From Clostridia bacterium (lineage in GTDB: Bacteria; Bacillota; Clostridia; Oscillospirales; CAG-272): 64,000 bases of DNA. A program made the position numbers and the translations under genes. This document shows, one piece after another, positions 6,399-43,207 of the stretch (positions are counted from its first letter, which is position 1; the number at the start of each line of letters is the position of its first letter). The stretch lies in contig JAFTQX010000027.1 in assembly GCA_017462545.1 (NCBI GenBank), positions 30,331 through 94,330 on the forward strand, read 5' to 3'. Below the pieces are notes generated by a model. That model was not told where the DNA came from and did no database searches. It was given only the letters and a program-made list of their open reading frames with translations.

Positions 6399-7235
6399 AT
6401 GTCAGAGAACAGATGCTCCTGCAGCTCAGGCGGCGCCTCCTCCGGTGGAAGAGAGACCATCTGCATCGATACCAATCGCGTATTGGATTCTTGCCGCGAC
6501 AGAGACTGCTATGAAAATGCCCGCGTTTATGTAAGCCAGGCCGGGCAGGAATTGCTTGACCATGTCGGCTGCACCGTGCGCGTCGTATGTGCCAAAATTC
6601 TTTGGACATATATCTCGGTTGACCCGATTCAGTTCAATCGCGGCTTTTATCAGATTACGGCACGCTTCTATATTCACGTGAAGCTGGAGGCATGTGTCGG
6701 AATGGGTAGATCCCAGTCGTTTGACGGCATTGCCGTGGTAGAGAAAACCGTCGTTCTGTTTGGCGGAGAAGGGAATGTCAGCATTTTCCGCAGCACCCCT
6801 GAGGCAAACCGCTGTGCGCCCTGGAATGGCTCTCATCGCTCCAACAATCTGCCTACCGCCGTGGTAGAAACGGTAGAGCCTGTTGTACTTGGCTCTACCG
6901 TTGTTGAGCCAAGTTCCTGCAATTGTGCCTGCTATACCTGTTGCTCCGCGAGCGACATCCCGCAGGACATTTTGGATCAGGGATGTCTTGATAACGTGTG
7001 TGACAACGACGATGGGAATAAGCTCTATGTTTCGCTTGGGATTTTCACCGTCTTCCGCATTGAGCGCCCGGCTCAATTCCTGATCTCGGCCTCGGATTAC
7101 TGTGTGCCGGATAAGGAATGTGTTTGCGACGAGCCGAGCAGCCCTTGCAACCTCTTCCGCAACATGGCCTTTCCGACGAGTGAATTCTCGGCCGGCTGCC
7201 GTTCGGCAGATGATACGTGCAACAGAAAGCATTAA
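6399..7235 (+). CDS. cysteine-rich protein of unknown function (possible spore coat/exosporium component)
   Basis: 278 aa with 22 Cys in clusters (RCSC, DSCRDRDC, SSCNCACYTCC, YCVPDKECVCDEPSSPC). No signal peptide. RBS AGGGGGA lies ahead of ATG 6399 and a + strand terminator sits at 7246-7276. Confidence 0.65.
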   Translation: MSENRCSCSSGGASSGGRETICIDTNRVLDSCRDRDCYENARVYVSQAGQELLDHVGCTVRVVCAKILWTYISVDPIQFNRGFYQITARFYIHVKLEACVGMGRSQSFDGIAVVEKTVVLFGGEGNVSIFRSTPEANRCAPWNGSHRSNNLPTAVVETVEPVVLGSTVVEPSSCNCACYTCCSASDIPQDILDQGCLDNVCDNDDGNKLYVSLGIFTVFRIERPAQFLISASDYCVPDKECVCDEPSSPCNLFRNMAFPTSEFSAGCRSADDTCNRKH

Positions 7236-7245
7236 AAACGCAACC

Positions 7246-7276
7246 AAAAGCGACACAGGTTCCTGTGTCGCTTTTG
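7246..7276 (+). terminator. intrinsic terminator after the Cys-rich gene
   Basis: gcgacacag/ctgtgtcgc stem with a gttc loop, then tttt. Confidence 0.8.
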
Positions 7277-7356
7277 GTTATGAAACCCGTATAAATACTG
7301 GATTTTTAGCAGTTTTTAATTGAACTCAATTTGCACAAAAACATAAGATACATAGC

Positions 7357-7388
7357 AAAAGCGAGGTGAAACTCACCTCGCTTTTATT
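7357..7388 (+). terminator. second, orphan terminator-like hairpin
   Basis: gcgaggtg-aaact-cacctcgc followed by ttttattatt. No ORF lies between it and the previous terminator. Confidence 0.55.
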
Positions 7389-7396
7389 ATTGACTA

Positions 7397-7425
7397 TTGA
7401 CAAAAACGCAATCTCGTGATATACT
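7397..7425 (+). promoter_or_regulatory. sigma-A-type promoter of the iclR-GRE-activase unit
   Basis: TTGACA (7397-7402), 17-nt spacer, TATACT (7420-7425). Confidence 0.65.
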
Positions 7426-7461
7426 TATAACATCGTAATATATAAGAAACGAGGAAAGAGT

Positions 7462-8217
7462 ATGTCAAATTTAGCACCTGCAGCCGAGGCATCCACAAAA
7501 ATAATCACCTTTCTTGCGGAATGTGAGCAAGAAACAGGCATTTCCGAAATCAGTCGCGGAACAGGAATTAATAAAAATATGGTGTTTCGCATACTTAACA
7601 CATTGGAAAATGAGGGGTGGGTATATTGTAACGGGCAAAAGTACAGCTTAACTCTTTTGCTTTTTGGGTTGGCATCAAAGCCGGTTGCAAGACTTTCCTT
7701 GAATACGGCGGCTACCCCTGTTCTTCATGATCTGTTAAATGAAACAGGTGAAAGTACATATCTTGGAATATTAAAAGACGATAAGGTAATGTATCTGCAG
7801 CATCTTGATGGTATAAAAGACGTACGGGTCGCCGGTAAGCTTGGCGGTGAATATGATCTATACTGCTCCGCTCCCGGCAAGGTATTGCTTGCATACGGCG
7901 ATGATGAGTTTATTGAAAGTTATGTTTCAAGGCAATTAGATAAACGCACCGAGAACAGCATAACAGAAAAAAGCGCTTTGCTGACAGAATTGGAAACGGT
8001 TCGTCAAAATAGTTACGCAACAGACCGCGAAGAATTTGGTAACGGTATCACCTGTGTTGCAGCGCCTATATATGATTATTCCGGTAAAGTAATTGCTGCT
8101 ATAGGATGCTCGGCATTTACGGTTAATGGAGAGTGTCAGGAAATTATAGATAAACTTTTACCAAAAGTATTATCAGCAGCAAAGAAAATTTCGCTCATTC
8201 TTGGCACAAAAAAATAA
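7462..8217 (+). CDS. IclR family transcriptional regulator
   Basis: N-terminal wHTH (ISEISRGTGINKNMVFRILNTLE..GWV) and a C-terminal IclR effector domain (..YATDREEFGNGITCVAAPI.D..G..IAAIG). Confidence 0.9.
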   Translation: MSNLAPAAEASTKIITFLAECEQETGISEISRGTGINKNMVFRILNTLENEGWVYCNGQKYSLTLLLFGLASKPVARLSLNTAATPVLHDLLNETGESTYLGILKDDKVMYLQHLDGIKDVRVAGKLGGEYDLYCSAPGKVLLAYGDDEFIESYVSRQLDKRTENSITEKSALLTELETVRQNSYATDREEFGNGITCVAAPIYDYSGKVIAAIGCSAFTVNGECQEIIDKLLPKVLSAAKKISLILGTKK

Positions 8218-8231
8218 TCGGAGGTTGGATT

Positions 8232-10346
8232 ATGTATTACAATATAATTGAGCATATAAAAAGCAAGTATTTTGATGACTTGGAAGGATATTCGCCATGT
8301 ATTCGCCAAGCTATGCTATTTAAGTACGTAACGGAAGAAATACCATTAAAGTTAATGGACACGGATCATATAGCGGGGTGGTATGGCTTTGAAAATAAAA
8401 GTGACGTGATGGAATTGGAAAGAAGATCTTTTACCCGCGTTTCTGTGTTAAACGATGAACAAAGGCAAAGGATCAAGCATCTTGATAATGATTTAAAAAC
8501 CAAGATTGCTTTTACATCCGCTCACACTTGTATTGACTATGAAACGATTGTTCAAAATGGATTGGCGTATTATATTACACGCGTAGAGCAAGCTATTTTA
8601 GAAAACCCTGATAATGATTATCTAAAAGCTATGAAAATCAGTCTTGAAGCCGCCTGTGAATATGCCCTTCGTTTTGCCGATGTAGCTAATGAAAAAGCAA
8701 AAAACTCAAAAACGTCAGAACAAAAGAGACGTTTTGAAAGCATATATTCTGCTCTTTGCCGTGTGCCGCGCAGTGGGGCGAATAATTTTCTTGAGGCGGT
8801 GCAATCGGTTTGGATAATGCACTCCCTTATTCCAATGGCAGAAATGAGTTGGGCAAGCATTTCCATAGGACGGATAGATCAATATTTATATCCGTTTTAC
8901 GAAAAACATATAACGGATGGCGGAAATAAAGAAGAGATCAAAGATATTTTAAAAAACCTATTCGTACTTCTGGACTCCTACGGCGACGGCGCTTGTGCCA
9001 TGAATATCGGCGGAATGGACGCTAAGGGCCAAGATATGATTAATGACCTTTCAAAAATATTGATCGAGGTTGAAAAAGAAATGTCACTGCGTGCACCGAT
9101 CTTTGCGGTGCGCGTAACTCCTGATATGCCCGAAGACGTTTTGGATTCACTCATTGATTTTGATTTGTTTAAAATAGGTCAGCCTACGTTTTATTCTGAA
9201 CTTCCGTGTCGCAAAGCTATCATGGGCAGAGGAGTATCGGAAAGCGAGGCGGTTGATTTTGCTGCCAACAGCTGTATGGGGCTTATTCTTGCGGGGCGAG
9301 AATTTGCAGATATGTGGGGGATCATGTTTAATTCCCATTTGCCGTTAGAGCTTGCCGTTAATCACGGAAAACCGCTCAACAGTAATTTGGATGTTGAGTT
9401 TGAGACTCGCCCCACAGAAATAAACGATTTTGAGGAGTTGTTGCAGAAATATAACAGCTATTTTTCAGAATTAATAGCGCTTTGCACTAATTTATATGAG
9501 GTGTTAGCCGTAGAAAAAGAGGCTAATTGCCCCGATCCGTTGCTTTCTGCAATAACTGAAGGGTGTATTGAAAACTGCGGAGACAGAGCAAACAGCGCAA
9601 CGTATAATACCGTAACCGTAGAAACCATGGGGCTTGTAAATACCTGTGATGCATTAGTGGCAATAAAAGAACTCGTGTACGAACAGAAAAAATATACTCT
9701 AAAAAATTTTATCACAGCAGCTAAAATGAATTTTGAGGGCTACGAAAAACTGTTGTCGGATATATCTGAATGTAAAAAATACGGAATGAACGATTTGGGT
9801 GTTAATGCAATTTTTGAGCGGATATGTAAAATGGTATCTGCTGCTTGTAAAAAGGTTTCTCACGATAACCGTTTGTTTATACCGTCCTTACATACTATTG
9901 ATGTCAACGTTGGTTATGGCAGAATTCTTTACGCTACGCTTGACGGCAGAAAAGCAGGCCAACCTGTTAATAAAAATGCAAATCCTTCAAATTTACTGAA
10001 AAAAACAGAGCATACAAGTCACGTTTTATCAGCTACAGCATTTGACCAAACCGAATTTTCAGGCGGTCAGCCTATTGATCTGTATTTTGACAAGAAATGG
10101 TTCGAAACAAAAGAATCAAGGGATAAAATAAAGGCACTTATCCGCACCTATTTTCAGCTTGGCGGATTACAGCTTCAGGTCAACAGCATCGATATCGAGT
10201 TGCTTGAAAAGGCACATAATAACCCTGAGGATTATCCGTTTGTGATAGTTCGAAAAGGAGGCTTTAGTGTACGCTTCAACGAAATGCGCAAAGATACTCG
10301 AGAAGAATTCATCGAGCTTGCAAAAAGGATGGAACAGAATGTGTAG
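8232..10346 (+). CDS. divergent glycyl-radical enzyme (PFL2/glycerol-dehydratase-like fold), substrate unknown
   Basis: FLEAVQSVWIMH, GRIDQYLYPFY and NIGGMDAKGQD..NDLS blocks. Candidate thiyl Cys348 is in AANSCMGL (nt 9273-9275). The glycyl loop is VIVRKGGFSVRF with Gly677 (nt 10260-10262). An activase gene follows and overlaps its 3' end. Confidence 0.9.
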   Translation: MYYNIIEHIKSKYFDDLEGYSPCIRQAMLFKYVTEEIPLKLMDTDHIAGWYGFENKSDVMELERRSFTRVSVLNDEQRQRIKHLDNDLKTKIAFTSAHTCIDYETIVQNGLAYYITRVEQAILENPDNDYLKAMKISLEAACEYALRFADVANEKAKNSKTSEQKRRFESIYSALCRVPRSGANNFLEAVQSVWIMHSLIPMAEMSWASISIGRIDQYLYPFYEKHITDGGNKEEIKDILKNLFVLLDSYGDGACAMNIGGMDAKGQDMINDLSKILIEVEKEMSLRAPIFAVRVTPDMPEDVLDSLIDFDLFKIGQPTFYSELPCRKAIMGRGVSESEAVDFAANSCMGLILAGREFADMWGIMFNSHLPLELAVNHGKPLNSNLDVEFETRPTEINDFEELLQKYNSYFSELIALCTNLYEVLAVEKEANCPDPLLSAITEGCIENCGDRANSATYNTVTVETMGLVNTCDALVAIKELVYEQKKYTLKNFITAAKMNFEGYEKLLSDISECKKYGMNDLGVNAIFERICKMVSAACKKVSHDNRLFIPSLHTIDVNVGYGRILYATLDGRKAGQPVNKNANPSNLLKKTEHTSHVLSATAFDQTEFSGGQPIDLYFDKKWFETKESRDKIKALIRTYFQLGGLQLQVNSIDIELLEKAHNNPEDYPFVIVRKGGFSVRFNEMRKDTREEFIELAKRMEQNV

Positions 10347-11241
10347 CGGTGTTGTTTTCAACATTCAAAAATTTTGCATAAATGACGGTCCCGGTATCAG
10401 AACAACGGTATTTCTTAAAGGCTGTCCGTTGCGATGCAAGTGGTGCCATAATCCCGAATCGCATTTTTACAAACGGGAGTTGCTTTATGATTCGGAAAAA
10501 TGTGTAGGTTGTGGACGCTGCGGTGATGTCTGCTCTCAAAACGCACATTCTTTTGAAGGCGGGCATAGTATAGACCGCAACCACTGTGTTTCCTGCGGTC
10601 GGTGTGTCAAAGAATGTGGCTTTGATGCGCTGGAATTTTCCGGTAAAGAGGTGTGCGTTCAAGAGGTTTTTAATGAAATTTTAAAGGATAAAGTCTTTTA
10701 TGATAATTCAGGTGGCGGATTGACACTGTCGGGTGGCGAACCGCTGATGCAGTTTGATTTTGCTTATGAGCTTTTAAGGCAAGCAAAAAAGAATGGGATA
10801 CATACCTGTATTGAAACCTGTGGATTTGCCAAAACAGAGGATATTTTGAAAATTGCGGAGTATACCGATATATTTCTTTATGATTGGAAGCTGACCGATG
10901 AAAAATTACATAAAGAATATACCGGTGTGAGTAATAGGTTGATACTTCAGAATTTAAAGTCGATCGATGCTGTTGGCTCCAAAATCATTTTAAGATGTCC
11001 TATCATTCCAAGTGTAAATGATACCGAGGAGCATCTTCTTGGTATTATTAGCGTTGCGAATTCTCTTAAAAATATTTTGGCTGTTGAAATTGAGCCGTAT
11101 CATTCGTTGGGCAACAGCAAATACAAAAAACTCGGAAAAACAGAAAAATGCCAAGCTTTCTGCCAACCCACAGAGCAGCAGGTTGAAGCTTGGATCACGA
11201 AAATTCAAAAGCACAGTAAAACCGTTGTAAAAAAAGCGTAG
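10339..11241 (+). CDS. glycyl-radical enzyme activating protein (radical SAM)
   Basis: N-terminus GVVFNIQKFCINDGPGIRTTVFLKGCPLRCKWCHNPES (CX3CX2C), plus two ferredoxin-like motifs CVGCGRCGDVC and CVSCGRCVKEC. ATG 10339 overlaps the GRE stop (ATGTGTAG); the listed 10267 start is an upstream extension. Confidence 0.9.
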   Translation: MCSGVVFNIQKFCINDGPGIRTTVFLKGCPLRCKWCHNPESHFYKRELLYDSEKCVGCGRCGDVCSQNAHSFEGGHSIDRNHCVSCGRCVKECGFDALEFSGKEVCVQEVFNEILKDKVFYDNSGGGLTLSGGEPLMQFDFAYELLRQAKKNGIHTCIETCGFAKTEDILKIAEYTDIFLYDWKLTDEKLHKEYTGVSNRLILQNLKSIDAVGSKIILRCPIIPSVNDTEEHLLGIISVANSLKNILAVEIEPYHSLGNSKYKKLGKTEKCQAFCQPTEQQVEAWITKIQKHSKTVVKKA

Positions 11242-11265
11242 CAAATCTATTTTTTAAATCAGTAT

Positions 11266-11321
11266 AAATCTCCTTGCTTTGCAGATACTAACAGTACAAA
11301 TCTGTAAAAACAAGGAGATTT
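11266..11321 (+). terminator. long hairpin ending the GRE unit; its 3' arm contains the spoVT Shine-Dalgarno
   Basis: aaatctccttg (11266-11276) pairs perfectly with caaggagattt (11311-11321). An inner extension tttgcagat/atctgtaaa has one G:U. The hairpin is followed by tttat. Confidence 0.55.
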
Positions 11322-11330
11322 TTATATATT

Positions 11331-11885
11331 ATGAAAGCCACAGGAATTGTACGTCGCATCGACGACCTCGGACGTGTCGTCATTCCCAAAGAAATAAGAA
11401 GAACAATGCGCATTCGCGAGGGTGACCCTCTTGAAATCTATACCGATCGGGAGGGGGAAGTAATCTTCAAAAAATATTCACCGATCGGTGAAATGGCATC
11501 CTTTGCGGCACAGTATGCAGAGACGCTGCAAAAGACCTGTTCCATGGCTGTTGTCATCTGTGACCGTGATGCCGTTATCGCGTCTGCCGGTGTGCCCAAA
11601 CGGGAATATGCAGACAAAAAGGTTTCATCCGCTTTTGAAGAGATCATTGAAGGCAGATCGATTTACACGCACAAGGAGAACGGAGAGCGCATTTCAGTCA
11701 TCGAAGATGGAGGCTCCTATTATGTTAGTTGTGCCATGCCGATCATTACAGAGGGAGACATTGTGGGCTGCGTAGCCTCTGTTTTACCTCACGATGGTGA
11801 GGGGGTTGATCGTATTCCCACCGATTTAGAAACCAAGCTGATTCAAACAGCAGCTGGCTTTCTTGGTAAGCAGCTTGAAAATTGA
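11331..11885 (+). CDS. spoVT: stage V sporulation protein T (AbrB-family regulator)
   Basis: MKATGIVRRIDDLGRVVIPKEIRRTMRIREGDPLEIY SpoVT/AbrB swapped-hairpin N-terminus plus a GAF-like C-terminal domain; 184 aa. Confidence 0.9.
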   Translation: MKATGIVRRIDDLGRVVIPKEIRRTMRIREGDPLEIYTDREGEVIFKKYSPIGEMASFAAQYAETLQKTCSMAVVICDRDAVIASAGVPKREYADKKVSSAFEEIIEGRSIYTHKENGERISVIEDGGSYYVSCAMPIITEGDIVGCVASVLPHDGEGVDRIPTDLETKLIQTAAGFLGKQLEN

Positions 11886-11890
11886 TAGAA

Positions 11891-11918
11891 AGAGAACCGA
11901 CAATGTCGGTTCTTTTTT
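11891..11918 (+). terminator. intrinsic terminator after spoVT
   Basis: gaaccga-caatg-tcggttc followed by tttttt. Confidence 0.8.
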
Positions 11919-11948
11919 ACTGGAAAGTGCGGAATTCATAAAAACAAC

Positions 11949-11977
11949 TTGCAATTCCTATAAAAGCCGTGTATAAT
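11949..11977 (+). promoter_or_regulatory. sigma-A-type promoter of the M16 peptidase pair
   Basis: TTGCAA, 17-nt spacer, TATAAT. The listed GTG 11969 start lies inside this promoter. Confidence 0.55.
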
Positions 11978-12004
11978 GGAATAAAAACAAAAAAGGAAAC
12001 AAGA

Positions 12005-13315
12005 ATGAGCCTTTATCGCTGTTCGTTGAAGCCGGGGATCTTTTTAAACCACTTAAAAAATGACCGGTTTAAGACGGGGTATTTTTCGCTGAACTTTATT
12101 CTTCCGCTCTCCATAGAAAACGTAGCGTACTATGCGCTGCTTCCTCGTGTTTTGCGTAGTGGATGCGAATCCTTGCCGAATCGACGTGCTATCGTCAAAC
12201 GGTTAGAGGAGCTATACGGGGCTGACATTTACGTCCGGCATTACGGACGGGGTGACAAGCAGATTATTTCCTTTGCTGCCGATTTTATTGATCGTGCATA
12301 TTTGCCGCAGGACGAACGAGCCGATGTGTTTTCAGAAACACTTGCCGTTTTACGAGATTTAATTTTTTCACCCATTCAGCAAAACGGTCTGTTTTTACAG
12401 GAATACGTCGATATGGAACGGCGCAATTGCGCAGATGCCGTTCGTGCAATGATAAACAACAAGCAACAGTACGCCATTCACCGCTGCACGATGCTGATGT
12501 GTGAGGGAGAGACGAGCGGCATTCCGATTTTGGGAACAGTTGAAGACTTTGAAAACCTCCTTCCTCAAAAGCTAATAGAATGCTACCGCCACATGCTTGC
12601 CCATGCTCAGGTAGAGATCTTTTATGTTGGTTCGTCGTCACCGGCTGCTTTGGAAACTGTTTCTGCCGAGTTTTTTTGCTCGAAAATGGACGGGCGTGAA
12701 CTTCCGCAAACACAATCAGCACGCATTCTTCATGCAAACACAGCAAAGCAATATGAAGAAACCGCCAACGCCGTACAGGGAAAACTAGTACTTGGTTTTC
12801 GTACGGGTGTCTTTTTGGGTGATACAACGCAATTTGCTTATTCGCTGTTCAACGAAATCTATGGTGGCTCGCCATCCTCCAAGTTGTTTTTAAATGTACG
12901 CGAGAAGAAGAGCCTTTGCTATTCTTGCTATGCACATGCCGATCTCTTGAATGGAATCATGTATGTGGCGGCCGGCATTGATCGCGAGCAGAAGGATGTT
13001 GCTATCAAAGAAATCTTGTTACAGCTAGATAAAACCCGGCAGAACGAGATTTCCCAAGAAGAACTCTATTATGCCAAGCAATCGCTTGCCAATGGCTATC
13101 GCAGCTTATATGATAGCCCTGAAGCATTGGAGGTCTGGTACCTGCGGCGCATCCTTGCAGGGAGTGTCCTTACACCGGAAGAGGTGATTGAGCGCATCAT
13201 GCAGGTAACTGCTCAAGATGTGGCTGCCATTGCCCAAAGGGTTTCGCTGGACACGATTTACTTTCTGCGCGGTGACGGCACATGCACAGATGAGGAAGGG
13301 GAAGAAGATGACTGA
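12005..13315 (+). CDS. M16 (pitrilysin/insulinase) family protein, non-catalytic subunit type
   Basis: M16 fold-length protein without an HxxEH zinc motif (the equivalent region reads YALLPRVLRSG). Its 8-nt overlap with the next M16 gene suggests coupling. Confidence 0.8.
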   Translation: MSLYRCSLKPGIFLNHLKNDRFKTGYFSLNFILPLSIENVAYYALLPRVLRSGCESLPNRRAIVKRLEELYGADIYVRHYGRGDKQIISFAADFIDRAYLPQDERADVFSETLAVLRDLIFSPIQQNGLFLQEYVDMERRNCADAVRAMINNKQQYAIHRCTMLMCEGETSGIPILGTVEDFENLLPQKLIECYRHMLAHAQVEIFYVGSSSPAALETVSAEFFCSKMDGRELPQTQSARILHANTAKQYEETANAVQGKLVLGFRTGVFLGDTTQFAYSLFNEIYGGSPSSKLFLNVREKKSLCYSCYAHADLLNGIMYVAAGIDREQKDVAIKEILLQLDKTRQNEISQEELYYAKQSLANGYRSLYDSPEALEVWYLRRILAGSVLTPEEVIERIMQVTAQDVAAIAQRVSLDTIYFLRGDGTCTDEEGEEDD

Positions 13316-22850: not shown

Positions 22851-22885
22851 AAAATGCCGAAGTCCATAAGACTTCGGCATTTTTT
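22851..22885. terminator. bidirectional terminator
   Basis: atgccgaagtc-cataa-gacttcggcat flanked by an A-run and a T-run. Confidence 0.85.
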
Positions 22886-23720
22886 ATCCTTTGACAGCTC
22901 CGGCAACGACACCGCGTATAATATGCTTTTGCATCAACGCATAGAACAGAACAATCGGAATGATGGCGAGCACCAGCATGGCCATCAATGCCCCCATATC
23001 ACGCGAACCGTATCCCCCTTGTAGATATTGCACCGCCACCGGAATGGTTCTGTATTTGGAGCCAATAACAAGGAGCGGCAGCAAATAATCGTTCCAAACC
23101 CACATGGCATTCAGCACGGCTACGGTAATCGAAATGGGTTTCAAAATCGGTAGAATGACATAAAAGAAACGCTGGGGCGGCGTGCATCCATCAATTTCTG
23201 CCGCCTCTTCAATTGCCAACGGAATGCTACGAATAAAGCCATAGAACATAAATACAGAGAGCCCGGCGCCGAATCCAAGATAGATCAAAATGATACCAAT
23301 CGGGTTTTCCAAGTGAAGAACATTGGCTATCTTGGACATCGTAAACATGACCATCTGAAATGGGACGATCATGCTGAAGATCAACACATAGTAGATGATT
23401 TTTGTCGTCCGTGTTCTTACACGCGCTAAATACCAGGATGCCATGGAGGTAAACAACAGGATAGTCAACACAGAAAACACCGTAATAAACAAGGAATATC
23501 CAAGCGCACTGAAAAAGCCGATCTTTTGAATGCCGCTGATATAGTTCTCAAGTCCGACAAACGTATCGGGCGATGGGAGTTTAAATGGCTCTGCCGAGAT
23601 ATAAAACTGCCCTTTGAAGGAGTTCATCAGAACGATTATGATAGGCAGAATGAATAATGCTGTTAGGGCGGCCAATAGAATCACAAGAAGTGTGTTCGTA
23701 ACTCTTTTGGAGATTCTCAT
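22884..23720 (-). CDS. carbohydrate ABC transporter permease (MalG-like)
   Basis: Six TM helices and an EAAEIDGCTPPQRFFYVILP EAA loop. Confidence 0.9.
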   Translation of the reverse strand: MRISKRVTNTLLVILLAALTALFILPIIIVLMNSFKGQFYISAEPFKLPSPDTFVGLENYISGIQKIGFFSALGYSLFITVFSVLTILLFTSMASWYLARVRTRTTKIIYYVLIFSMIVPFQMVMFTMSKIANVLHLENPIGIILIYLGFGAGLSVFMFYGFIRSIPLAIEEAAEIDGCTPPQRFFYVILPILKPISITVAVLNAMWVWNDYLLPLLVIGSKYRTIPVAVQYLQGGYGSRDMGALMAMLVLAIIPIVLFYALMQKHIIRGVVAGAVKG

Positions 23721-24562
23721 ACATCAGCCTCCTTGCGGCGTGTCAGGCGCATCTGAAGCAATGCCAGCAACGCCACCAGGATAAAGAAAACGACCGCTTT
23801 GGCCTGCCCCACTCCCTCTTGTCCGATGCTGCCGTAAAAGGTATTATAAATATCCAAAGCCATCATTTGTGTTTGTTTGCCGGGGGCACCTGCGGTTAAG
23901 GCATAGTTCTGATCAAACATTTTGAATGAGTTGCTGAGCGTAAGAAATGTGCAGATCGTAACCGATGGCATTACAAGCGGGAGTGTAATGTTTTTTAATG
24001 TTTGCCAGCCGCTCGCACCATCAATAGCTGCTACCTCGTGCAGCTCATGCGGAATGTTTTGCAAACCGGCGACATAGATAATCATCATATAGCCAATCAT
24101 CTGCCAATTCATCAACACAACCAATCCCCAAAAGCCATATTGTGCGCTATAGGTTAGATCTACACCGCGTGCAGCGAGAATGCCGTTGATAATCAGCTGC
24201 CAGATATATCCCAACACAATGCCGCCGATCAGATTTGGCATAAAAAACGCGGTTCTGAAAAAGTTCGTGCCGCGCAGTCCTTTCGTTAGCAAAAGCGCGA
24301 GGATAAAAGCCAGCAGATTTACAGAAAGAACAGAAACCACCGTAAACTTTGCGGTAAAGCGAAATGCATTTAAAAAGTCACTGTTTGCTGCAAAGGCCTT
24401 TATATAGTTTGAAATGCCCACAAATTTCGCGTCGGTAACCGTAGTAAACTCGGTAAAGGATAACCCAACGCCCATGACAAACGGCACAAGAAAGGCAATC
24501 ACAAACGCAATGAGCGTAGGCAAAAGAAAGAGCCAAGCATATTTTCGCAGACTTCTCTGCAT
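23717..24562 (-). CDS. sugar ABC transporter permease (MalF-like)
   Basis: EVAAIDGASGWQTLKNITLPL EAA loop and a 4-nt overlap with the next permease. Confidence 0.9.
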   Translation of the reverse strand: MQRSLRKYAWLFLLPTLIAFVIAFLVPFVMGVGLSFTEFTTVTDAKFVGISNYIKAFAANSDFLNAFRFTAKFTVVSVLSVNLLAFILALLLTKGLRGTNFFRTAFFMPNLIGGIVLGYIWQLIINGILAARGVDLTYSAQYGFWGLVVLMNWQMIGYMMIIYVAGLQNIPHELHEVAAIDGASGWQTLKNITLPLVMPSVTICTFLTLSNSFKMFDQNYALTAGAPGKQTQMMALDIYNTFYGSIGQEGVGQAKAVVFFILVALLALLQMRLTRRKEADV

Positions 24563-25878
24563 CAGGCGATTTCATCCTTCCAGCGGGTGACAAAGAGTGA
24601 GACGACGTCCTCCCATGTCTTTGTTCCCTGTGCGTACTGCAAAAGTGCCGCGCCGAAATCTGTCTTGAAATTCTGGCTCGGGAATATCGAGAAGATCCAC
24701 GGAACGGTCTGTACGCCTTCTTTATTCATCCATTGATAAACTTCCTTGCCAAGAGGATCGGATGGCTCCTCTACCTCCTCAAACGTGTCGTAAGGGGCAA
24801 TAAAGTTCAGCTTGTTGGTAACAAAATCCTTCCCGCTATCGCTGGTGTACAGCCATGTGAGAAAATCCTCAGCCATTTTTTGCTTTTCGGCACTGACTTG
24901 CGAATTGATGGCAAAAAAGTTTTCTGTACCTACACAAAGCCCTTGATTTTCTTCTCCGGCCATGCCGGTATACAGCGGTAAAAATTTAATGTTCTCTGCC
25001 TTTACACGGTTGCCGCTTACCTCGTTGATCTGACTCCATGCCCAGTTGCCGTTTTGCACCATTGCGCATTGACCAAGAGCGAATTCTGCCATAGAATCGG
25101 CTACTTGCTTGCTGCCGAGCAGTTTGGGATCTGTTGTGGAATGATTGATATAAAGATCAAACAAATTCTTATACTTATCCTGGTAGATGAAACTGATATT
25201 GCTCAAATCATCTTTACTGATATCAATGTTTTTGTCTTTTAATTCATAATAGATCGGCATATTGGCCAGATGCGTTTGATAACGCCAGTCCTCGCCGGAT
25301 TTGAGTGATGTGGAAGCAAACACACCATTGATGCCCAACTCACTTTTTCGTGCTGTCATATCACGAACAAGTGCAGACAGCTTTTCAAAATTGTTGACCT
25401 CATCCATAGAGGAAAAGCTTGTAGCCCGCCCGGAAAGCGCAAAATACCGATCGGTGATCTCTTTGTTATAAATGATACCATATCCCTCTACAACGGCAGG
25501 CAGGCCATAAACACCATCGCCGGATGTGATTGCCAATGAGGGGTCGGTCAAGTGTTGGTACAGTTTTGTACCGGAAAGATCCTTGCAGTAATTCTTCCAA
25601 GCGGCATAACCGATCACGCCGTTGATCTGGAATAAGACAGGTGCATCGCTTTTACTGATTTCGGATTTCAGCGTCTGCTCATACGTGCCCGATGCAGCAG
25701 TTACAACCCGCAGCGTCACCCCGGTTTCTTCTTTATATTTTGTTGCGATCTCTTGATAGGCCGCTGCAGATTCCGGTTTGAAATTCAAAAAGTAAAGTGT
25801 ATTTTCATCATTCTGCGCACAAGAGACAAGCGGCAACATCAACACGCACAGAATGCAACATAGTAGTATCCTTTTCAT
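24562..25878 (-). CDS. ABC transporter extracellular sugar-binding lipoprotein
   Basis: Lipoprotein signal LMLPLVSC and family-1 SBP length (438 aa). First gene of the three-gene importer; no ATPase gene is adjacent. Confidence 0.9.
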   Translation of the reverse strand: MKRILLCCILCVLMLPLVSCAQNDENTLYFLNFKPESAAAYQEIATKYKEETGVTLRVVTAASGTYEQTLKSEISKSDAPVLFQINGVIGYAAWKNYCKDLSGTKLYQHLTDPSLAITSGDGVYGLPAVVEGYGIIYNKEITDRYFALSGRATSFSSMDEVNNFEKLSALVRDMTARKSELGINGVFASTSLKSGEDWRYQTHLANMPIYYELKDKNIDISKDDLSNISFIYQDKYKNLFDLYINHSTTDPKLLGSKQVADSMAEFALGQCAMVQNGNWAWSQINEVSGNRVKAENIKFLPLYTGMAGEENQGLCVGTENFFAINSQVSAEKQKMAEDFLTWLYTSDSGKDFVTNKLNFIAPYDTFEEVEEPSDPLGKEVYQWMNKEGVQTVPWIFSIFPSQNFKTDFGAALLQYAQGTKTWEDVVSLFVTRWKDEIA

Positions 25879-37929: not shown

Positions 37930-40173
37930 TTAAATAAGATGATATTCCTTACCGGCGATTGTTTCTTGCTCAACAAGCTTATCGGCAAAGCGAAGCGCAA
38001 GGCGATTGCCAAGCAAGGAACGAACGGTCAGCTTTGTCAGTGTACCATTTTTCCAAGCCGCATCAATAACAAAGCCCCCGCGCGCACGGAAACCACGGAA
38101 AGAACCTTCCTTCCATGCTGCAGGACAAGCGGGCAAGACGCAAATGGCATCCTCATGGCTTTGCAGCAGCATTTCTGCGATTCCTGCAGTTGCACCATGA
38201 TTTCCATCCATTTGGAAAAAGACGGTTGGATGATGATCGAACAGATTTCGATACGTGCCATGCTGAAAGAGGTTCTTCAGCATTTCATAAGCACGATCAC
38301 CCTTTAAAAATCTGGCAAAGAAGCAAATGATCCAGGCATTGCTCCAACCTGTGTGCCCACCACCGTTTTCCAGGCGACGGTTGATGGACACTTGTGCTGC
38401 CTCAAACAGATTGGGCGTTTTCTCTTTTGTGATCAAGGCTGCAGGATACACCCCATACAGATGCGACATATGGCGGTGGCCCGGTTCGATCTCGTCATAA
38501 TCCTCTTGCCATTCAAGCAGCTGACCATGCTTACCGATCTGGAAAGGCGGCAGCTTTGCGCGGGCAGCACGCCATTTCTCTGCCAGATCAGCATCCTGGC
38601 CCAATATTTCAGCACAAGAGATCGCGTTATCAAACAGCTCAGCAATGATGGAATTGTCCATCGTTGGGCCGGCACACATCGCAATGGCCTCTCCGCTTAC
38701 AGGATCGATATAACGGTTTTCGGGAGAATTGGAAGGTGCCGTCACCAGACACCCGTTGTGCGGATCGGTAACCAAGAAATCCAAGAAGAAGATCGCACTG
38801 TCTCGAATGAGCGGATAATATTTTTGCAAGAACGCAGCATCGCCTGTATACAAATAATGTTCATATATATCGCGGCAGCACCATGCCCCCGCGCAAGCAA
38901 AGGCGCCCCATGAGGGGTGATTGCCGGGAGCGGTAAAGCCCCAGGGATTAGCAATGGTATGGGCTACCCACCCACGGCAGCCATACTGAACCTTGGCTGT
39001 TTTTTCGCCGTGCTCGGCCAGGTCTTCGATATAATGAAAATAAGGCTCCATATATTCTGTAAGACCCAGGATTTCCGCATGCCAGTACATCATCTGTAAA
39101 TTGATATTGATGTGAAAATCCGCGCTCCATGGCGGCGTGCAGTCCTTCACCCAGATTCCCTGTATGTTGGCAGGCAGCTTTCCGCGAGACGAAGACATCA
39201 GCAGGTATTTTCCAAAGTGGAAATACAAGGCGGCAAAGGAAACATCTTCTTCTCCACGGCAAATCGCTTCCAAGCGTTCATCAGTCGGAACGGCAGAACG
39301 ATCCGCGCCACCGAGATCAAGCACAGCACGCTCCATTACCTCGCGGTGTGCGGCAACATGCTCCTCATAGATCTTATCAAACCCCGCCTCACGAGCCAAA
39401 CGAATACGCTCACGGCATTCTTCTTCCGGCGATTTTGTGGTTTTATAAGAGGTTGCAGTAGTAGTGTAGATATAAAAACGTGTGGTAGCATGGGTAAAAA
39501 TACCGGCAGCTTCAGAATCTGCCCCTCCCTCTGCTACACTTTCGGGTGCTACAACAGAAACGACGGTACAATAGGAGCTCGCCCCCTCACCGACAAATGC
39601 GCCGCGCGCTACGATATTCCCCTGCGATTCATACATGACATCCGCATTGGGCCGATCAAAACGAACCTTCAACCGTTCGGGTGCTTTGCAGACGATCTCG
39701 GTAGCCGTAACTCCATATTTTTCCGAGACGAGATGTCGACGTGTATGCGTGCCGAAGTGTACGGTTGCTACACCATCAAATATGTCCAACTCACGCCGAT
39801 AGTGACTGCTGTCAACAACAGGCTTGCCGATCATCTGAATGGTGACATCTCCCGCCGTTTGATAGGTGCCATACGGTGCATCCGGCGTTTTCCAATTATC
39901 GCTTCCTTTTTTGCAAACAAGATATTTGATGCAAAGTGCTTCTGCCTCTTTGGCTTTGCCGGCAAACAGCAGCCTTCGCATTTCCTCCAAATACTCAAGA
40001 CATTCGGGATTATCATTGTCGTGGGGGCGGCCTGACCACATCGTCTCTTCAGATAACTGCAACCGTTCTGTCTCGACACCGCCAAACACCATCATGCCCA
40101 AAGCGCCGTTGCCGAGTGGAAGTGCCTCCTCCCATGCAGCTGCAGGCCGACGATACCAAACCTTTCTTTCCAT
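37930..40173 (-). CDS. GH95 family alpha-L-fucosidase, cytoplasmic
   Basis: N-terminus W.EALPLGNGALGMMVFGGVETERLQLSEETMWSG and NINLQMMYW block; 747 aa; no signal peptide. Confidence 0.85.
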   Translation of the reverse strand: MERKVWYRRPAAAWEEALPLGNGALGMMVFGGVETERLQLSEETMWSGRPHDNDNPECLEYLEEMRRLLFAGKAKEAEALCIKYLVCKKGSDNWKTPDAPYGTYQTAGDVTIQMIGKPVVDSSHYRRELDIFDGVATVHFGTHTRRHLVSEKYGVTATEIVCKAPERLKVRFDRPNADVMYESQGNIVARGAFVGEGASSYCTVVSVVAPESVAEGGADSEAAGIFTHATTRFYIYTTTATSYKTTKSPEEECRERIRLAREAGFDKIYEEHVAAHREVMERAVLDLGGADRSAVPTDERLEAICRGEEDVSFAALYFHFGKYLLMSSSRGKLPANIQGIWVKDCTPPWSADFHININLQMMYWHAEILGLTEYMEPYFHYIEDLAEHGEKTAKVQYGCRGWVAHTIANPWGFTAPGNHPSWGAFACAGAWCCRDIYEHYLYTGDAAFLQKYYPLIRDSAIFFLDFLVTDPHNGCLVTAPSNSPENRYIDPVSGEAIAMCAGPTMDNSIIAELFDNAISCAEILGQDADLAEKWRAARAKLPPFQIGKHGQLLEWQEDYDEIEPGHRHMSHLYGVYPAALITKEKTPNLFEAAQVSINRRLENGGGHTGWSNAWIICFFARFLKGDRAYEMLKNLFQHGTYRNLFDHHPTVFFQMDGNHGATAGIAEMLLQSHEDAICVLPACPAAWKEGSFRGFRARGGFVIDAAWKNGTLTKLTVRSLLGNRLALRFADKLVEQETIAGKEYHLI

Positions 40174-40177
40174 TACA

Positions 40178-43100
40178 TTATCCTTTCTTTATACGAAGCG
40201 TTACAATCTCGAAGGGCTTGATGGTTATATCGACACTATTGTTACAAATCGCAATAGGTGCGCCTTTCTCTTCCATCAAATTGCAAATCTCTACCGACGC
40301 AACCGCAAAGCCAAATGTAATATGGCAGACCGAACGCATATTCTTGGCGTCATACATACGAACGATCAGATCCTCGCCATCCTCGCTTTCCTTCACCGTT
40401 TCCATGATTACATTTTCACGATTGCACGAAATCGTGGAGTAAATTTCGGGCAGATTACCATCACCATCCATGCCCTTGCACACCGTCATGGGGAGATTGA
40501 GGTTATAGGCATGGCGCAAGGTATCGGCTGCTGTCAAATTGCCGGCATGTGGATAGATCGAATAGGTAAAATCATGTGCCCCCTGATCTGCAACAGGATT
40601 GGGGTAAGTCGCGCACTTAAGCAGCGTCAATTTCATCACACCATCATGAATGTTGTGCCCATATTTACAATCATTCAGTAAGCTGACACCGTAGCCGTTA
40701 TCCGAAAGATCGGCATATTTATGGCCGCACACCTCAAACTTCATAGCATCCCACGATGTATTGGAATGGGTGGGGCGTTCTACCGTGCCAAACTGCACCT
40801 CATAGGTAGCATGATCGGCGTTTACATCCACCGGGAACTCAGCTTTGAGGAATTGGTGCTGCTCATGCCAATCAAGATGTGTTTCAAAATCAATTCTGTC
40901 TAGATCTTGATAGAACCAAATCGTTTGCGTTACGGTACTGGAAAGATGAGGTCGAACAAGGCGAATACCAACGCGTGCTCCTTCATCAACCGTCTCATGC
41001 GATGTATATGCCGTCAACGGGTAGCCCTTATCCTCGTGATAAGCACTCATTTCCCATCCATCCCAATTGTAGGGATAGTCCTGATAAATCATCAATCGGT
41101 TGCCGATCGATCCATCCGTCAGCACCTCGCGCGCGTTTTTCTTATCAAACAAGCGGACAATCTCATAGTTCTCATTAAACGAGACCGAGAAAAATGGTGT
41201 CTCAATGTTTCTGCCGCTGATTAAGATGCTGTTTTTCTGTTCCTTGAGATCGATCACCTTGTAGCCCTTGGCGGGAATACCAGTTACATAGTATGCTTGA
41301 CCGTCTACTACCACAATATCGTTGTTTTCAAAGGAGTGTGGATTGAAAACAATGTATCTGCCTTCTGCCTTGATTTTTTCTGCAATTGAAGATGCTGCGG
41401 CGCTTATGGCATTCTCGCCAATCGCGCGGATTCTTTTATACATTTGATCGCAATCATCATACACCTCGCGAATAGAAGAACCGGGAATGATATCGTGAAA
41501 TTGATTGGTCAGAATGTCCTCCCAGCCTTCGTGCAGCTCCTCCTTCGGGTATGGCAGACCGGTCAGCAGCTTGGCCATAGAAGAAAGCCATTCAGCGCTT
41601 TGATATAACTGCTCGCTCTTACGATTGTTACGTTTGTTTTTGCCAATGCCTGTCAGCGTGCCGCGGTGCAGCTCAAGGTACAATTCCCCGCGCCATTTCG
41701 GTACGCTCGGATTGTTTTCCATCTTTCGTGCCAACCGCGCCAACGCGTTGCTTGGAAATTCACTCTTGCCATTCGGGCAGCCGGGAATGCCGTAGGCTGT
41801 GCGGCGCAGCATCTCAATATGCTCCTTGGTAGGGCCACCACCGCCGTCACCATAACCGTAGGTCAGGATGGCTTCATTATTGATATCCTTTTGCTGGTAA
41901 CGGTGATAGGTGCCGGCAATCATTTTGGCATCGGTCGTTCCCACATAGGTCGTATATCGCTCCGGCCCGCGACCGCGATACTGCATTTGCGGCGTAAGGA
42001 AATACGCATTGATTTCCGTACCGTCAATGCCCTGCCAACGGAAGGTATCGTAGGGCATCTGGTTGCATTCATTCCAGCTGATCTTGGAGGTGACAAACCA
42101 ATCGACCTCGCTCTTGCGCAAGATCTGTGGTAAGGCAGCCGAATAACCGAACACATCGGGCAGCCAAAGGATGTGGCTGTCCACACCAAATTCCTGCTTG
42201 AAGAAACGCTTACCGTACATCACCTGACGTACAAGGCTTTCACCACTTGTCAGGTTGCAGTCCGCCTCTACCCACATGGCGCCTTCGACTTCCCAACGCC
42301 CGGCAGCAACCATCTTTTTTATTTCTTCATAAAGCTCAGGTGCCTCTTCCTTGGCATCCTTATAAAGAAGCGCTTGGGAGGACATGAATTTGTATTCCGG
42401 ATACCGCTTCATCAGCTCGACGACGGTAGAAAAGGAGCGTTGTACCTTCTCCTTCGTCTGTGCCAATGTCCAAAGCCAAGCACAGTCAATATGCGTGTGA
42501 CCAATACAGATCGTGCTGGCCTCTTGTTTTTTGCAGTATTTTTCATAAAATTCCTTCTGCATATACCGCTCGGCAGCCTCTACGGATGCGTAGAACGCAT
42601 CCGACGGCACGCAAAGCAGATCTAGCAGATCGACAGCCTTGCTCAAATGCTCGAGCGTGGTGGCATACGCCAAGGAATTGGTATCGAGAAACTCAAGAAC
42701 CTGCAGCGGTACCAGTAGATCGTAATACAGTTTTTCCACCAAAGGATTAGGCGTATAAAGCGAAACGTGAAGCTCTACCGTCGGGATGTTTTGGCCGGTG
42801 TACGCATAAATGTATACATCGAAATCATCCTTCCCATCTAACAAAAGGTCAGTGTGATTCGTATCCAGCCCCTGCTGCATTTTGCCATCTACATACGCAA
42901 GAAACTGTGGATTGAGACAGGCGCGATCCGTATGCTCACTGGCAATGCTGAGGTGTAGCTCCTCTCCCTTCATCGCTTCGGGTCTTGTCACATGAACATA
43001 AAACCAGGCATGGCTATCGTTTCCTGTGCCCCAAGTGCCGTTCATATCGTACGGCACAAATTCTGAAAGCGGAGGCGGCGTGTTGCCCTGCTTATAGCCA

Positions 43101-43207
43101 CAGGGGCAGATAAGCACCTCACCAACCGACGCGCGGCGACGCACACATTGCGGCTGCAGCACCTTCAACAGGGTTTTGACCTTTTCGTAAGTAAATTTGT
43201 ACTTCAC
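40178..43207 (-). CDS. GH38 family alpha-mannosidase, cytoplasmic
   Basis: GHTHIDCAWLW, LWLPDVFGYS and LHRGT motifs; 1009 aa; no signal peptide. Confidence 0.9.
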   Translation of the reverse strand: MKYKFTYEKVKTLLKVLQPQCVRRRASVGEVLICPCGYKQGNTPPPLSEFVPYDMNGTWGTGNDSHAWFYVHVTRPEAMKGEELHLSIASEHTDRACLNPQFLAYVDGKMQQGLDTNHTDLLLDGKDDFDVYIYAYTGQNIPTVELHVSLYTPNPLVEKLYYDLLVPLQVLEFLDTNSLAYATTLEHLSKAVDLLDLLCVPSDAFYASVEAAERYMQKEFYEKYCKKQEASTICIGHTHIDCAWLWTLAQTKEKVQRSFSTVVELMKRYPEYKFMSSQALLYKDAKEEAPELYEEIKKMVAAGRWEVEGAMWVEADCNLTSGESLVRQVMYGKRFFKQEFGVDSHILWLPDVFGYSAALPQILRKSEVDWFVTSKISWNECNQMPYDTFRWQGIDGTEINAYFLTPQMQYRGRGPERYTTYVGTTDAKMIAGTYHRYQQKDINNEAILTYGYGDGGGGPTKEHIEMLRRTAYGIPGCPNGKSEFPSNALARLARKMENNPSVPKWRGELYLELHRGTLTGIGKNKRNNRKSEQLYQSAEWLSSMAKLLTGLPYPKEELHEGWEDILTNQFHDIIPGSSIREVYDDCDQMYKRIRAIGENAISAAASSIAEKIKAEGRYIVFNPHSFENNDIVVVDGQAYYVTGIPAKGYKVIDLKEQKNSILISGRNIETPFFSVSFNENYEIVRLFDKKNAREVLTDGSIGNRLMIYQDYPYNWDGWEMSAYHEDKGYPLTAYTSHETVDEGARVGIRLVRPHLSSTVTQTIWFYQDLDRIDFETHLDWHEQHQFLKAEFPVDVNADHATYEVQFGTVERPTHSNTSWDAMKFEVCGHKYADLSDNGYGVSLLNDCKYGHNIHDGVMKLTLLKCATYPNPVADQGAHDFTYSIYPHAGNLTAADTLRHAYNLNLPMTVCKGMDGDGNLPEIYSTISCNRENVIMETVKESEDGEDLIVRMYDAKNMRSVCHITFGFAVASVEICNLMEEKGAPIAICNNSVDITIKPFEIVTLRIKKG

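Follow-up and report, generated by a model that had tools for sequence, protein, structure and literature searches.

A conserved clade of clostridial glycyl radical enzymes without the Cys-x-Glu motif and its possible role in sugar or polyol metabolism

Introduction

Among the characterized glycyl radical enzymes (GREs), the B12-independent glycerol dehydratase (GDH) of C. butyricum (PDB 1R8W/1R9D) and the 1,2-propanediol dehydratase (PD) of R. inulinivorans (PDB 5I2G) are PFL2-type enzymes built on a 10-stranded barrel. In GDH, His164 protonates the leaving C2 hydroxyl, and a Cys-x-Glu (CXE) motif, with its Glu hydrogen-bonded to the substrate, is kept by the six known C-O eliminases, by CutC and the C-S lyases, and by the three isomerases (2026 GRE review, PMC13450708). 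The same review points out that entire GRE clades are without experimental validation. Here, we describe an uncharacterized clade represented by a gene at 8232..10346 (+ strand) in a 64-kb stretch of a Clostridia bacterium genome (contig JAFTQX010000027.1), which we refer to in full as the window.

By analogy, the GRE of the window would be closest in its workings to the B12-independent dehydratases, and its pathway logic would resemble that of YbiW and PflD, the ring-opening isomerases of "anhydroglycolysis" that act on 1,5-anhydroglucitol-6-phosphate and 1,5-anhydromannitol-6-phosphate, respectively. With GDH and PD it shares the barrel and the type of activating enzyme (activase), but it is only 22-23% identical to them, its glycyl loop reads R-K-G-G-F and not R-V-A-G-Y, and its relatives are found at sugar loci and not at diol or microcompartment loci. 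YbiW and PflD are carbohydrate GREs whose product passes to an aldolase, like the gene module that accompanies three relatives of the window GRE, and the clade profile scores them at 280-310 bits. In contrast to the clade, they keep CXE (YbiW E443 lies on Gly350 of the window GRE) and use sugar phosphates delivered by the phosphotransferase system. The window GRE carries C-M-G at this motif and is thus set apart from both groups.

A complete PFL2-type core

The gene is an uninterrupted open reading frame (ORF) of 704 codons, and its product is identical to GenBank MBQ8351023.1, a "hypothetical protein" from a Clostridia bacterium metagenome-assembled genome. It matches the PFL-like (PF02901, 3e-94) and Gly_radical (PF01228, 6e-16) domains. 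The first-pass annotation of this stretch, made from its letters, had placed the thiyl Cys at Cys348 (AANS-C-MGL, nt 9273-9275) and the radical Gly at Gly677 (VRK-G-G-FS, nt 10260-10262), 329 residues apart, and translation and alignments agree with it on all of these points. The corresponding distance in GDH is 330 residues (C433-G763, read from the profile alignment). An AlphaFold2 model computed from 49 homologs (pLDDT 93.2, pTM 0.92) superposes on the solved GREs GDH, PD, CutC, and HypD with Foldseek TM scores of 0.85-0.87. The protein is thus predicted to be a full PFL2-type barrel, with Gly677 and Cys348 on two finger loops.

The enzyme is 83 residues shorter than GDH, and 66 of these precede the conserved His (H98 versus H164), close to the N-terminal shortfall of 80-100 residues estimated in the first-pass annotation. 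Within this shortfall lies a 36-residue GDH block that is missing from the whole clade in the profile alignment. Since GREs dimerize through their N-terminal helices (PMC13450708), we speculate that the quaternary structure of the shorter enzyme may differ from that of known GREs.

Despite the shared fold, the enzyme is distant from every described family. Identity to the closest solved or characterized GREs is only 20-24%, with none above 24%, which goes against a close kinship that would have undone the view of this protein as a member of an uncharacterized clade. The best single-sequence match is the PFL2 protein of Archaeoglobus fulgidus (PDB 2F3O, 242 bits, 24% identity), whose function is debated and which differs in being archaeal, in its length of 776 residues, and in reading C-V-E and R-V-A-G-W at the two loops. 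TIGR01774, the PFL2/glycerol dehydratase subfamily, is missed by a wide margin (311.9 versus a cutoff of 678.2), and the equivalog models for HypD, CutC, HpfG, HpsG, IAD, and HPAD give 142-254 bits against cutoffs of 1000-1150.

The glutamate two residues after the catalytic Cys is replaced

The tip of the Cys loop, S347-C348-M349-G350 (9270..9281, + strand), places a Gly where the Glu of CXE would be expected. We examined this position in 3 alignments: a phmmer search of the single sequence against the PDB, a 49-member clade profile against the PDB, and an hmmalign alignment of YbiW and PflD of E. coli. Cys348 coincides with the catalytic Cys in A. fulgidus PFL2, GDH (C433), PD, CutC, HypD, YbiW (C441), and PflD, and Gly350 falls on the Glu at the second position after the Cys (C+2) in all 7 of these reference enzymes, free of gaps within about 20 residues either way. 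The hmmalign placement of YbiW C441 and E443 agrees with the residue numbers that the 2026 GRE review gives, and the register of the alignment is thereby confirmed. The absence of the C+2 Glu noted in the first-pass annotation therefore stands in all 3 alignments, and none of them shifts an acidic residue into its place. That annotation had attributed the C+2 Glu to eliminases and decarboxylases alike; this is right for the eliminases, and for the isomerases as well, but the decarboxylase-type enzyme of PDB 7e7l reads C-V-L. Another residue, Cys255, was considered as a second catalytic Cys; it is near-invariant in the 49 closest members, yet it is replaced by Ile, Ser, Gly, or Asn in the wider clade, so the idea was dropped.

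The glycyl loop, R674-K-G-G677-F-S679 (10251..10268, + strand), lies within the Pfam Gly_radical match, with Gly677 as the predicted radical site. The published GRE motif is RVxG[FWY]x6-8[FL]x4Qx2[IV]x2R. The window enzyme reads R-K-G-G-F-x6-M-x4-R-x2-F-x2-L, which keeps the Arg, the Gly, and the aromatic residue while changing V to K, [FL] to M, Q to R, [IV] to F, and R to L; other members of the clade match at more positions. The statement of the first-pass annotation that the GRE fingerprint is lacking was too strong, since the published RVxG[FWY] allows the first Gly of the pair as x, and the true departure is at the Val position. What it had noticed is nevertheless a real signature of the clade, R-[K/I]-G-G.

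A conserved clade in uncultured Clostridia

These features are shared well beyond the window GRE. Among 5.8 billion proteins searched, 555 relatives were found, and the best 120 of these are about 700 residues long, 44-98% identical to the window GRE, and essentially all from Clostridia metagenome bins. The public names that some of these 120 carry read "hypothetical protein," "DUF3029 family protein," or "formate C-acetyltransferase." The clade profile, run against 1.84 billion representatives clustered at 50% identity, found 2168 GRE-like clusters at E<=1e-30, of which about 40 score as members of the clade (1079 down to about 420 bits), followed by a plateau of ordinary C-V-E enzymes.

Signature counts were taken from 261 collected sequences aligned to the clade profile. 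C-M at the Cys loop and His at position 554 occur together in 161 of them, which constitute the clade, and the remaining 100 are non-clade neighbors. Residue C+2 is Gly in 156 clade members, Ala in 2, Glu in 2, and Gln in 1, against Glu in 84 of the 100 sequences outside. Position 675 is Lys in 73 members, Ile in 60, Arg in 11, Val in 6, and Leu in 6, where 88 of the 100 neighbors have Val; position 676 is Gly in 152 of 161, where 75 of the neighbors have Ala or Ser. Three changes thus go together in the aligned sequences: the Glu disappears, His554 appears, and the Gly loop becomes R-[K/I]-G-G. The clade signature may be written as [NS]-S-C-M-G at the Cys loop, His554 without exception, and R-[K/I]-G-G-[Y/F/H]-S at the Gly loop. 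Since 2 members keep C-M-E, the clade is better defined by C-M plus His554 than by loss of the Glu alone. That the catalytic core and the deviating features are conserved across the 161 relatives, with every NCBIfam equivalog failing, upholds the earlier suggestion of an uncharacterized clade.

The same alignment holds some further variants. One sub-branch of the clade (P0135, P0136, P0140, P0151, P0162, P0169, and L015:6367-8526) has His after the radical Gly (R-x-G-G-H-S/T), and some of its sequences carry C-M-E or C-M-Q at the Cys loop. Among the 100 non-clade neighbors (P0168-P0275 set), the radical-Gly column holds Thr in 4 and Ala in 1, which recalls the aminoacyl radical enzymes described not long ago.

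One explanation for such deviations would be that the protein is a degenerate, non-catalytic paralog with a radical-storage or regulatory role, or simply a misannotated DUF3029/YjjI protein or PFL. The public names lean this way, as do the many copies that have no activase beside them and the presence of several GRE paralogs per genome. Against degeneracy, Cys348 and Gly677 do not vary in any of the 161 clade sequences, the 49 aligned members have about 65 further invariant positions, and the GRE and its activase move together in the shared cassette described below. The window GRE and its 98% identical ortholog in a second Clostridia lineage (locus L007) are under purifying selection, with a dN/dS of 0.175. 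We consider this explanation very improbable, and the clade is a conserved one, under purifying selection, in uncultured gut and rumen Clostridia.

The two public family names were also examined directly. Some clade members are named after E. coli YjjI (DUF3029) and are matched faintly by PF11230, but an hhalign comparison with E. coli YjjI gave a probability of 10.7% over 114 columns and the window GRE has no PF11230 match at E<=0.01; the window activase likewise scores 151 bits against a YjjW cutoff of 250. In E. coli K-12, yjjW-yjjI adjoins deoC-deoA-deoB (L096, 4614680-4618102), an echo of the DeoC linkage seen in the clade, with YjjI itself not demonstrably related. PFL, the name given to the JGI sequence, is rejected because the Cys-Cys pair is absent (S-C-M-G) and TIGR01255 gives 58.7 against a cutoff of 994.2.

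Two conserved histidines in the predicted active site

His98 (codon 8523..8525, + strand) aligns with the acid catalyst His164 of GDH in the loop after beta-1, and with the corresponding His of PD and HypD; CutC has Asp216 there. All 151 clade sequences with coverage of this position have it. The His typical of eliminases is thus retained in the alignment, which speaks for a chemistry still akin to that of the dehydratases. Ser209 aligns with Ser282 of GDH.

His554 (codon 9891..9893, + strand) lies on an S-L-H-T strand and is invariant in the clade. It aligns with the Tyr of the G-L-Y-P-S-S strand of GDH (Tyr640 by residue count), and outside the clade the position is held by Tyr, Phe, Leu, or other residues, with His in 2 of 100 sequences. 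From this pattern, we infer that His554 is a candidate general base replacing the Glu.

Other positions of the pocket also change from GDH to the window enzyme. Glu435 becomes Gly350 and His281 becomes Ala208, and Tyr339 lies in a two-residue GDH insertion beside Gly253-Ala256; these residues are among those lining the GDH pocket. With small residues where GDH has bulky ones, the alignments suggest a larger, neutral, hydrogen-bonding pocket with two histidines, which could accommodate a sugar or polyol of C4-C6 size.

Relatives of the GRE lie among carbohydrate genes

We examined 25 loci of relatives, about 22 of which hold in-clade enzymes; a scan of metagenome contigs with a clade sub-alignment contributed 13 loci and a profile scan of genome contigs at least 5 in-clade loci. 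The activase gene adjoins the GRE gene in 13 of the 25, and an IclR-family gene flanks it in about 11. The surroundings contain CUT1 and CUT2 ABC sugar transporters (with a YtfQ/RbsB-like binding protein), glycoside hydrolases of families GH36, GH20, GH5, and GH28, GFO_IDH_MocA oxidoreductases, a ROK kinase, and LacI, DeoR, and AraC regulators. Homologous loci are consistently carbohydrate loci.

A more specific association is seen in 3 loci, where a DeoC gene lies beside the GRE gene: L001 (GRE 62% identical to that of the window), L014 (41%), and L015 (37%). The 3 DeoC proteins score 223, 216, and 178 bits, respectively, against the cutoff of 117 for TIGR00126, the deoxyribose-phosphate aldolase equivalog. 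L001 and L014 have in common a set of DeoC, a Zn-dependent alcohol dehydrogenase (ADH), an FGGY kinase, and a 327-residue NHL/SGL-like protein, and L015 has an FGGY kinase and an Fe-ADH in place of the Zn-ADH set. The L001 kinase passes the XylB cutoff (405 versus 380). The 327-residue protein of this DeoC-ADH-kinase-GRE module (L001:6981-7964 and L014:15309-16292) resembles an NHL/SGL beta-propeller and has a weak match to the ScyE family.

These contexts bear on whether the enzyme might be an ordinary small-diol or glycerol dehydratase with the substrate and chemistry of GDH or PD and a trivially rewired base. GDH and PD are the best profile and fold matches, and His98 and Ser209 match His164 and Ser282. 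However, identity is merely 22-24%, TIGR01774 is missed by more than half of its cutoff (312 versus 678 bits), and Gly or Ala stands in place of three residues of the GDH pocket. Sugar genes take the place of the expected partners: no microcompartment shell genes were seen in the contexts of the examined loci, and none of these loci contains genes for an aldehyde dehydrogenase or for 1,3-propanediol dehydrogenase. We hold it improbable that the enzyme is a small-diol dehydratase of the ordinary kind. The absence of shell genes would also fit a product other than a free volatile aldehyde.

A possible reaction and pathway

The reading that we tentatively favor, as plausible though by no means assured, is that the protein is an active GRE carrying out C-O-cleaving, His-assisted chemistry on a neutral sugar or polyol. 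The activase would set the radical on Gly677, from where it would pass to Cys348, and the Cys348 thiyl radical would abstract H from a hydroxyl-bearing carbon of the substrate. His554 would act as the base in place of the missing Glu, and His98 would protonate the vicinal leaving oxygen, as His164 does in GDH. The resulting alpha-carbonyl radical would regain H from Cys348, and the net outcome would be C-O cleavage, as a dehydration or a ring opening.

In its most specific form, drawn from the gene neighborhoods, the reaction would convert a free, pentitol-like polyol into a 2-deoxy-aldose, and in this detail it is distinctly doubtful. Here, 1,2-dehydration of the terminal diol of a pentitol would yield a 2-deoxy-pentose, in parallel to the conversion of glycerol to 3-hydroxypropanal, and cyclization of the product would explain why no microcompartment is needed. 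The FGGY kinase would phosphorylate the 2-deoxy-aldose, DeoC would cleave it to glyceraldehyde-3-phosphate and acetaldehyde, and the ADH would handle the acetaldehyde. The linkage to ABC transporters and a kinase would imply an unphosphorylated substrate. Extended to the clade as a whole, the proposal would be a reaction new for GREs, in its favored version the radical dehydration of free sugar alcohols to 2-deoxy-aldoses by a His/His pair instead of Cys-x-Glu, feeding a route through a kinase and DeoC. We hold this broader proposal to be doubtful as well.

Several observations weigh against this line of reasoning. DeoC adjoins an in-clade GRE in just 3 of about 22 loci, with a fourth homolog located elsewhere in L013, and neither DeoC nor an FGGY kinase was found within the 64-kb window. 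The FGGY kinase cluster spans 4 loci, but its member in L003 is an ordinary ribulokinase. The orientation of His554 and His98 and the size of the pocket are predicted from the alignment to GDH and HypD and from the residues that line their pockets. The 2 clade members with Glu at C+2, and the others with Ala or Gln, may mean that this position is unimportant and has not been replaced in function. Finally, the effectors of IclR regulators are more often organic or sugar acids, so that an acidic substrate would be expected and not a neutral one.

A different explanation, in line with the first-pass suggestion of a possibly different reaction type, is that the protein is an active GRE of another reaction class that has no need of a C+2 base and in which His554 and His98 bind the substrate. 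Such an enzyme could isomerize or epimerize its substrate by radical chemistry, cleave a C-C bond, or act on a sugar-derived acid in the manner of a decarboxylase. CXE is universal in the eliminases and isomerases and is absent across the clade, the decarboxylase-type 7e7l enzyme likewise lacks the C+2 Glu, and both the Gly loop and the N-terminal region of the clade are unlike those of eliminases. The IclR protein of the window has KdgR/PcaR-like scores, and such regulators typically respond to organic acids. In L007, the close ortholog is preceded, at no more than about 3 kb upstream, by genes for a DHDPS/NAL-type aldolase and an MFS transporter, which lie beside a different GRE paralog. On the other side, the clade profile scores highest on the dehydratases GDH (362 bits) and PD (355) and lower on decarboxylases (276 and 166) and X-succinate synthases (212 and 189), and the clade strictly conserves the His that serves the dehydratases as acid catalyst. 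As judged by alignment, there would be no Arg at the anion-binding positions of the sulfonate lyases, and the recurrent DeoC and kinase neighbors fit a deoxy-sugar product. We regard another reaction class as possible, if on the unlikely side. His-assisted C-O cleavage on a neutral sugar or polyol remains the reading we favor.

The GRE is encoded in a possibly mobile IclR-GRE-activase cassette

The GRE gene is the middle one of 3. An IclR-family regulator of 251 residues (7462..8217, + strand) ends with a stop 14 nt before the GRE start. It has both domains of the family, HTH_IclR (PF09339, 2e-10) and IclR_C (PF01614, 4e-44), and falls below every NCBIfam equivalog cutoff, with its best scores for the PcaR/PcaU subfamily (148 bits) and KdgR (144 bits). 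A promoter-like site, TTGACA-17-TATACT with a TG extension (7397..7425, + strand), lies 37 nt upstream of the IclR start and is named so from its consensus match alone (11 of 12 positions); a bidirectional hairpin terminator (7241-7280) lies upstream of it.

Downstream, a glycyl-radical activating enzyme of 300 residues (10339..11241, + strand) overlaps the GRE stop by 8 nt and is translationally coupled to the GRE gene. Its true start is most likely 10339 and not the GTG at 10267, and the gene call of the L007 ortholog uses the same start. It scores 340.6 bits for TIGR02494 (PFLE_PFLC) against a cutoff of 174.35 and contains a CX3CX2C motif at residues 29-36 and two ferredoxin-type CX2CX2CX3C motifs at 55-65 and 83-93, consistent with the first-pass description of an activase with two extra ferredoxin clusters. 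We therefore take 7462-11241 to be a self-contained unit of an IclR regulator, a GRE predicted to be catalytically competent, and a dedicated radical-SAM activase with three putative [4Fe-4S] clusters.

A region of 4.2 kb containing these genes (7344..11527, + strand) is shared with L007, a JGI contig of a second Clostridia lineage, where its counterpart is L007:9121-13288. The two are 96.75% identical at the nucleotide level (blastn, tblastx), and the match ends about 200 nt into spoVT. The encoded IclR, GRE, and activase proteins are 98.8%, 98.2%, and 97.0% identical, respectively, but the neighboring SpoVT merely 68%, and outside the cassette no other match to the window was found in the 22 kb of L007. 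This contrast points to a recent exchange between lineages. The cassette looks to have been moved by horizontal transfer or by recombination next to spoVT, and this suggests that it is an autonomous unit.

Surrounding genes and divergent paralogs

Around the cassette, the window contains housekeeping genes together with a GH95 (alpha-fucosidase-type) and a GH38 (alpha-mannosidase) glycoside hydrolase and a CUT1 ABC sugar transporter (37930-43207 and 22884-25878, - strand). Its host is a Clostridia bacterium that degrades glycans and forms spores (SpoVT, YfmF/YfmH). Just upstream of the strong bidirectional terminator at 7241-7280 is a Cys-rich ORF of 278 residues (6399-7235, + strand; CSCSSGG..., with many CxxC-like spacings) that has no Pfam or NCBIfam match, and a 276-residue ORF overlaps it on the opposite strand.

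No second GRE copy was found within the 64-kb window. In at least 8 of the loci of relatives, by comparison, divergent GRE paralogs (about 22-26% identity, mostly with CXE) are found close by, often in tandem. They include L007:3507-5645, L093:10274-12523, L095:3037-5277 and 10196-12364, L104:3264-5228, L108:4526-6415, and L015:3381-5390. These paralogs are 630-790 residues long and very divergent, none is more than about 26% identical to the window GRE, and all seem uncharacterized. Their Cys loops include GCWEV, GCWGI (also without Glu), GCHEI, NCVEI, GCYEASPQGDC, and GCCEV, the last with a Cys-Cys pair.

Implications for glycyl radical enzymes and anaerobic metabolism

We found no paper on this clade in the GRE literature, including that of 2025-2026; on the polyol side, where coverage was loose, this says little about whether such work exists. 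Knowing what the clade does would close a gap in the understanding of how sugars and polyols are used under anaerobic conditions and set right the present annotation of its members as "hypothetical," "DUF3029," or "PFL." The compact IclR-GRE-activase cassette is a ready unit for heterologous testing. If the conversion of a polyol to a deoxy-sugar is true, it would be a redox-neutral route for the anaerobic fermentation of reduced polyols. A large clade that is without CXE yet has the acid-catalyst His and a second, invariant His would represent either a second way of carrying out radical C-O chemistry on the GRE scaffold or a new reaction class.

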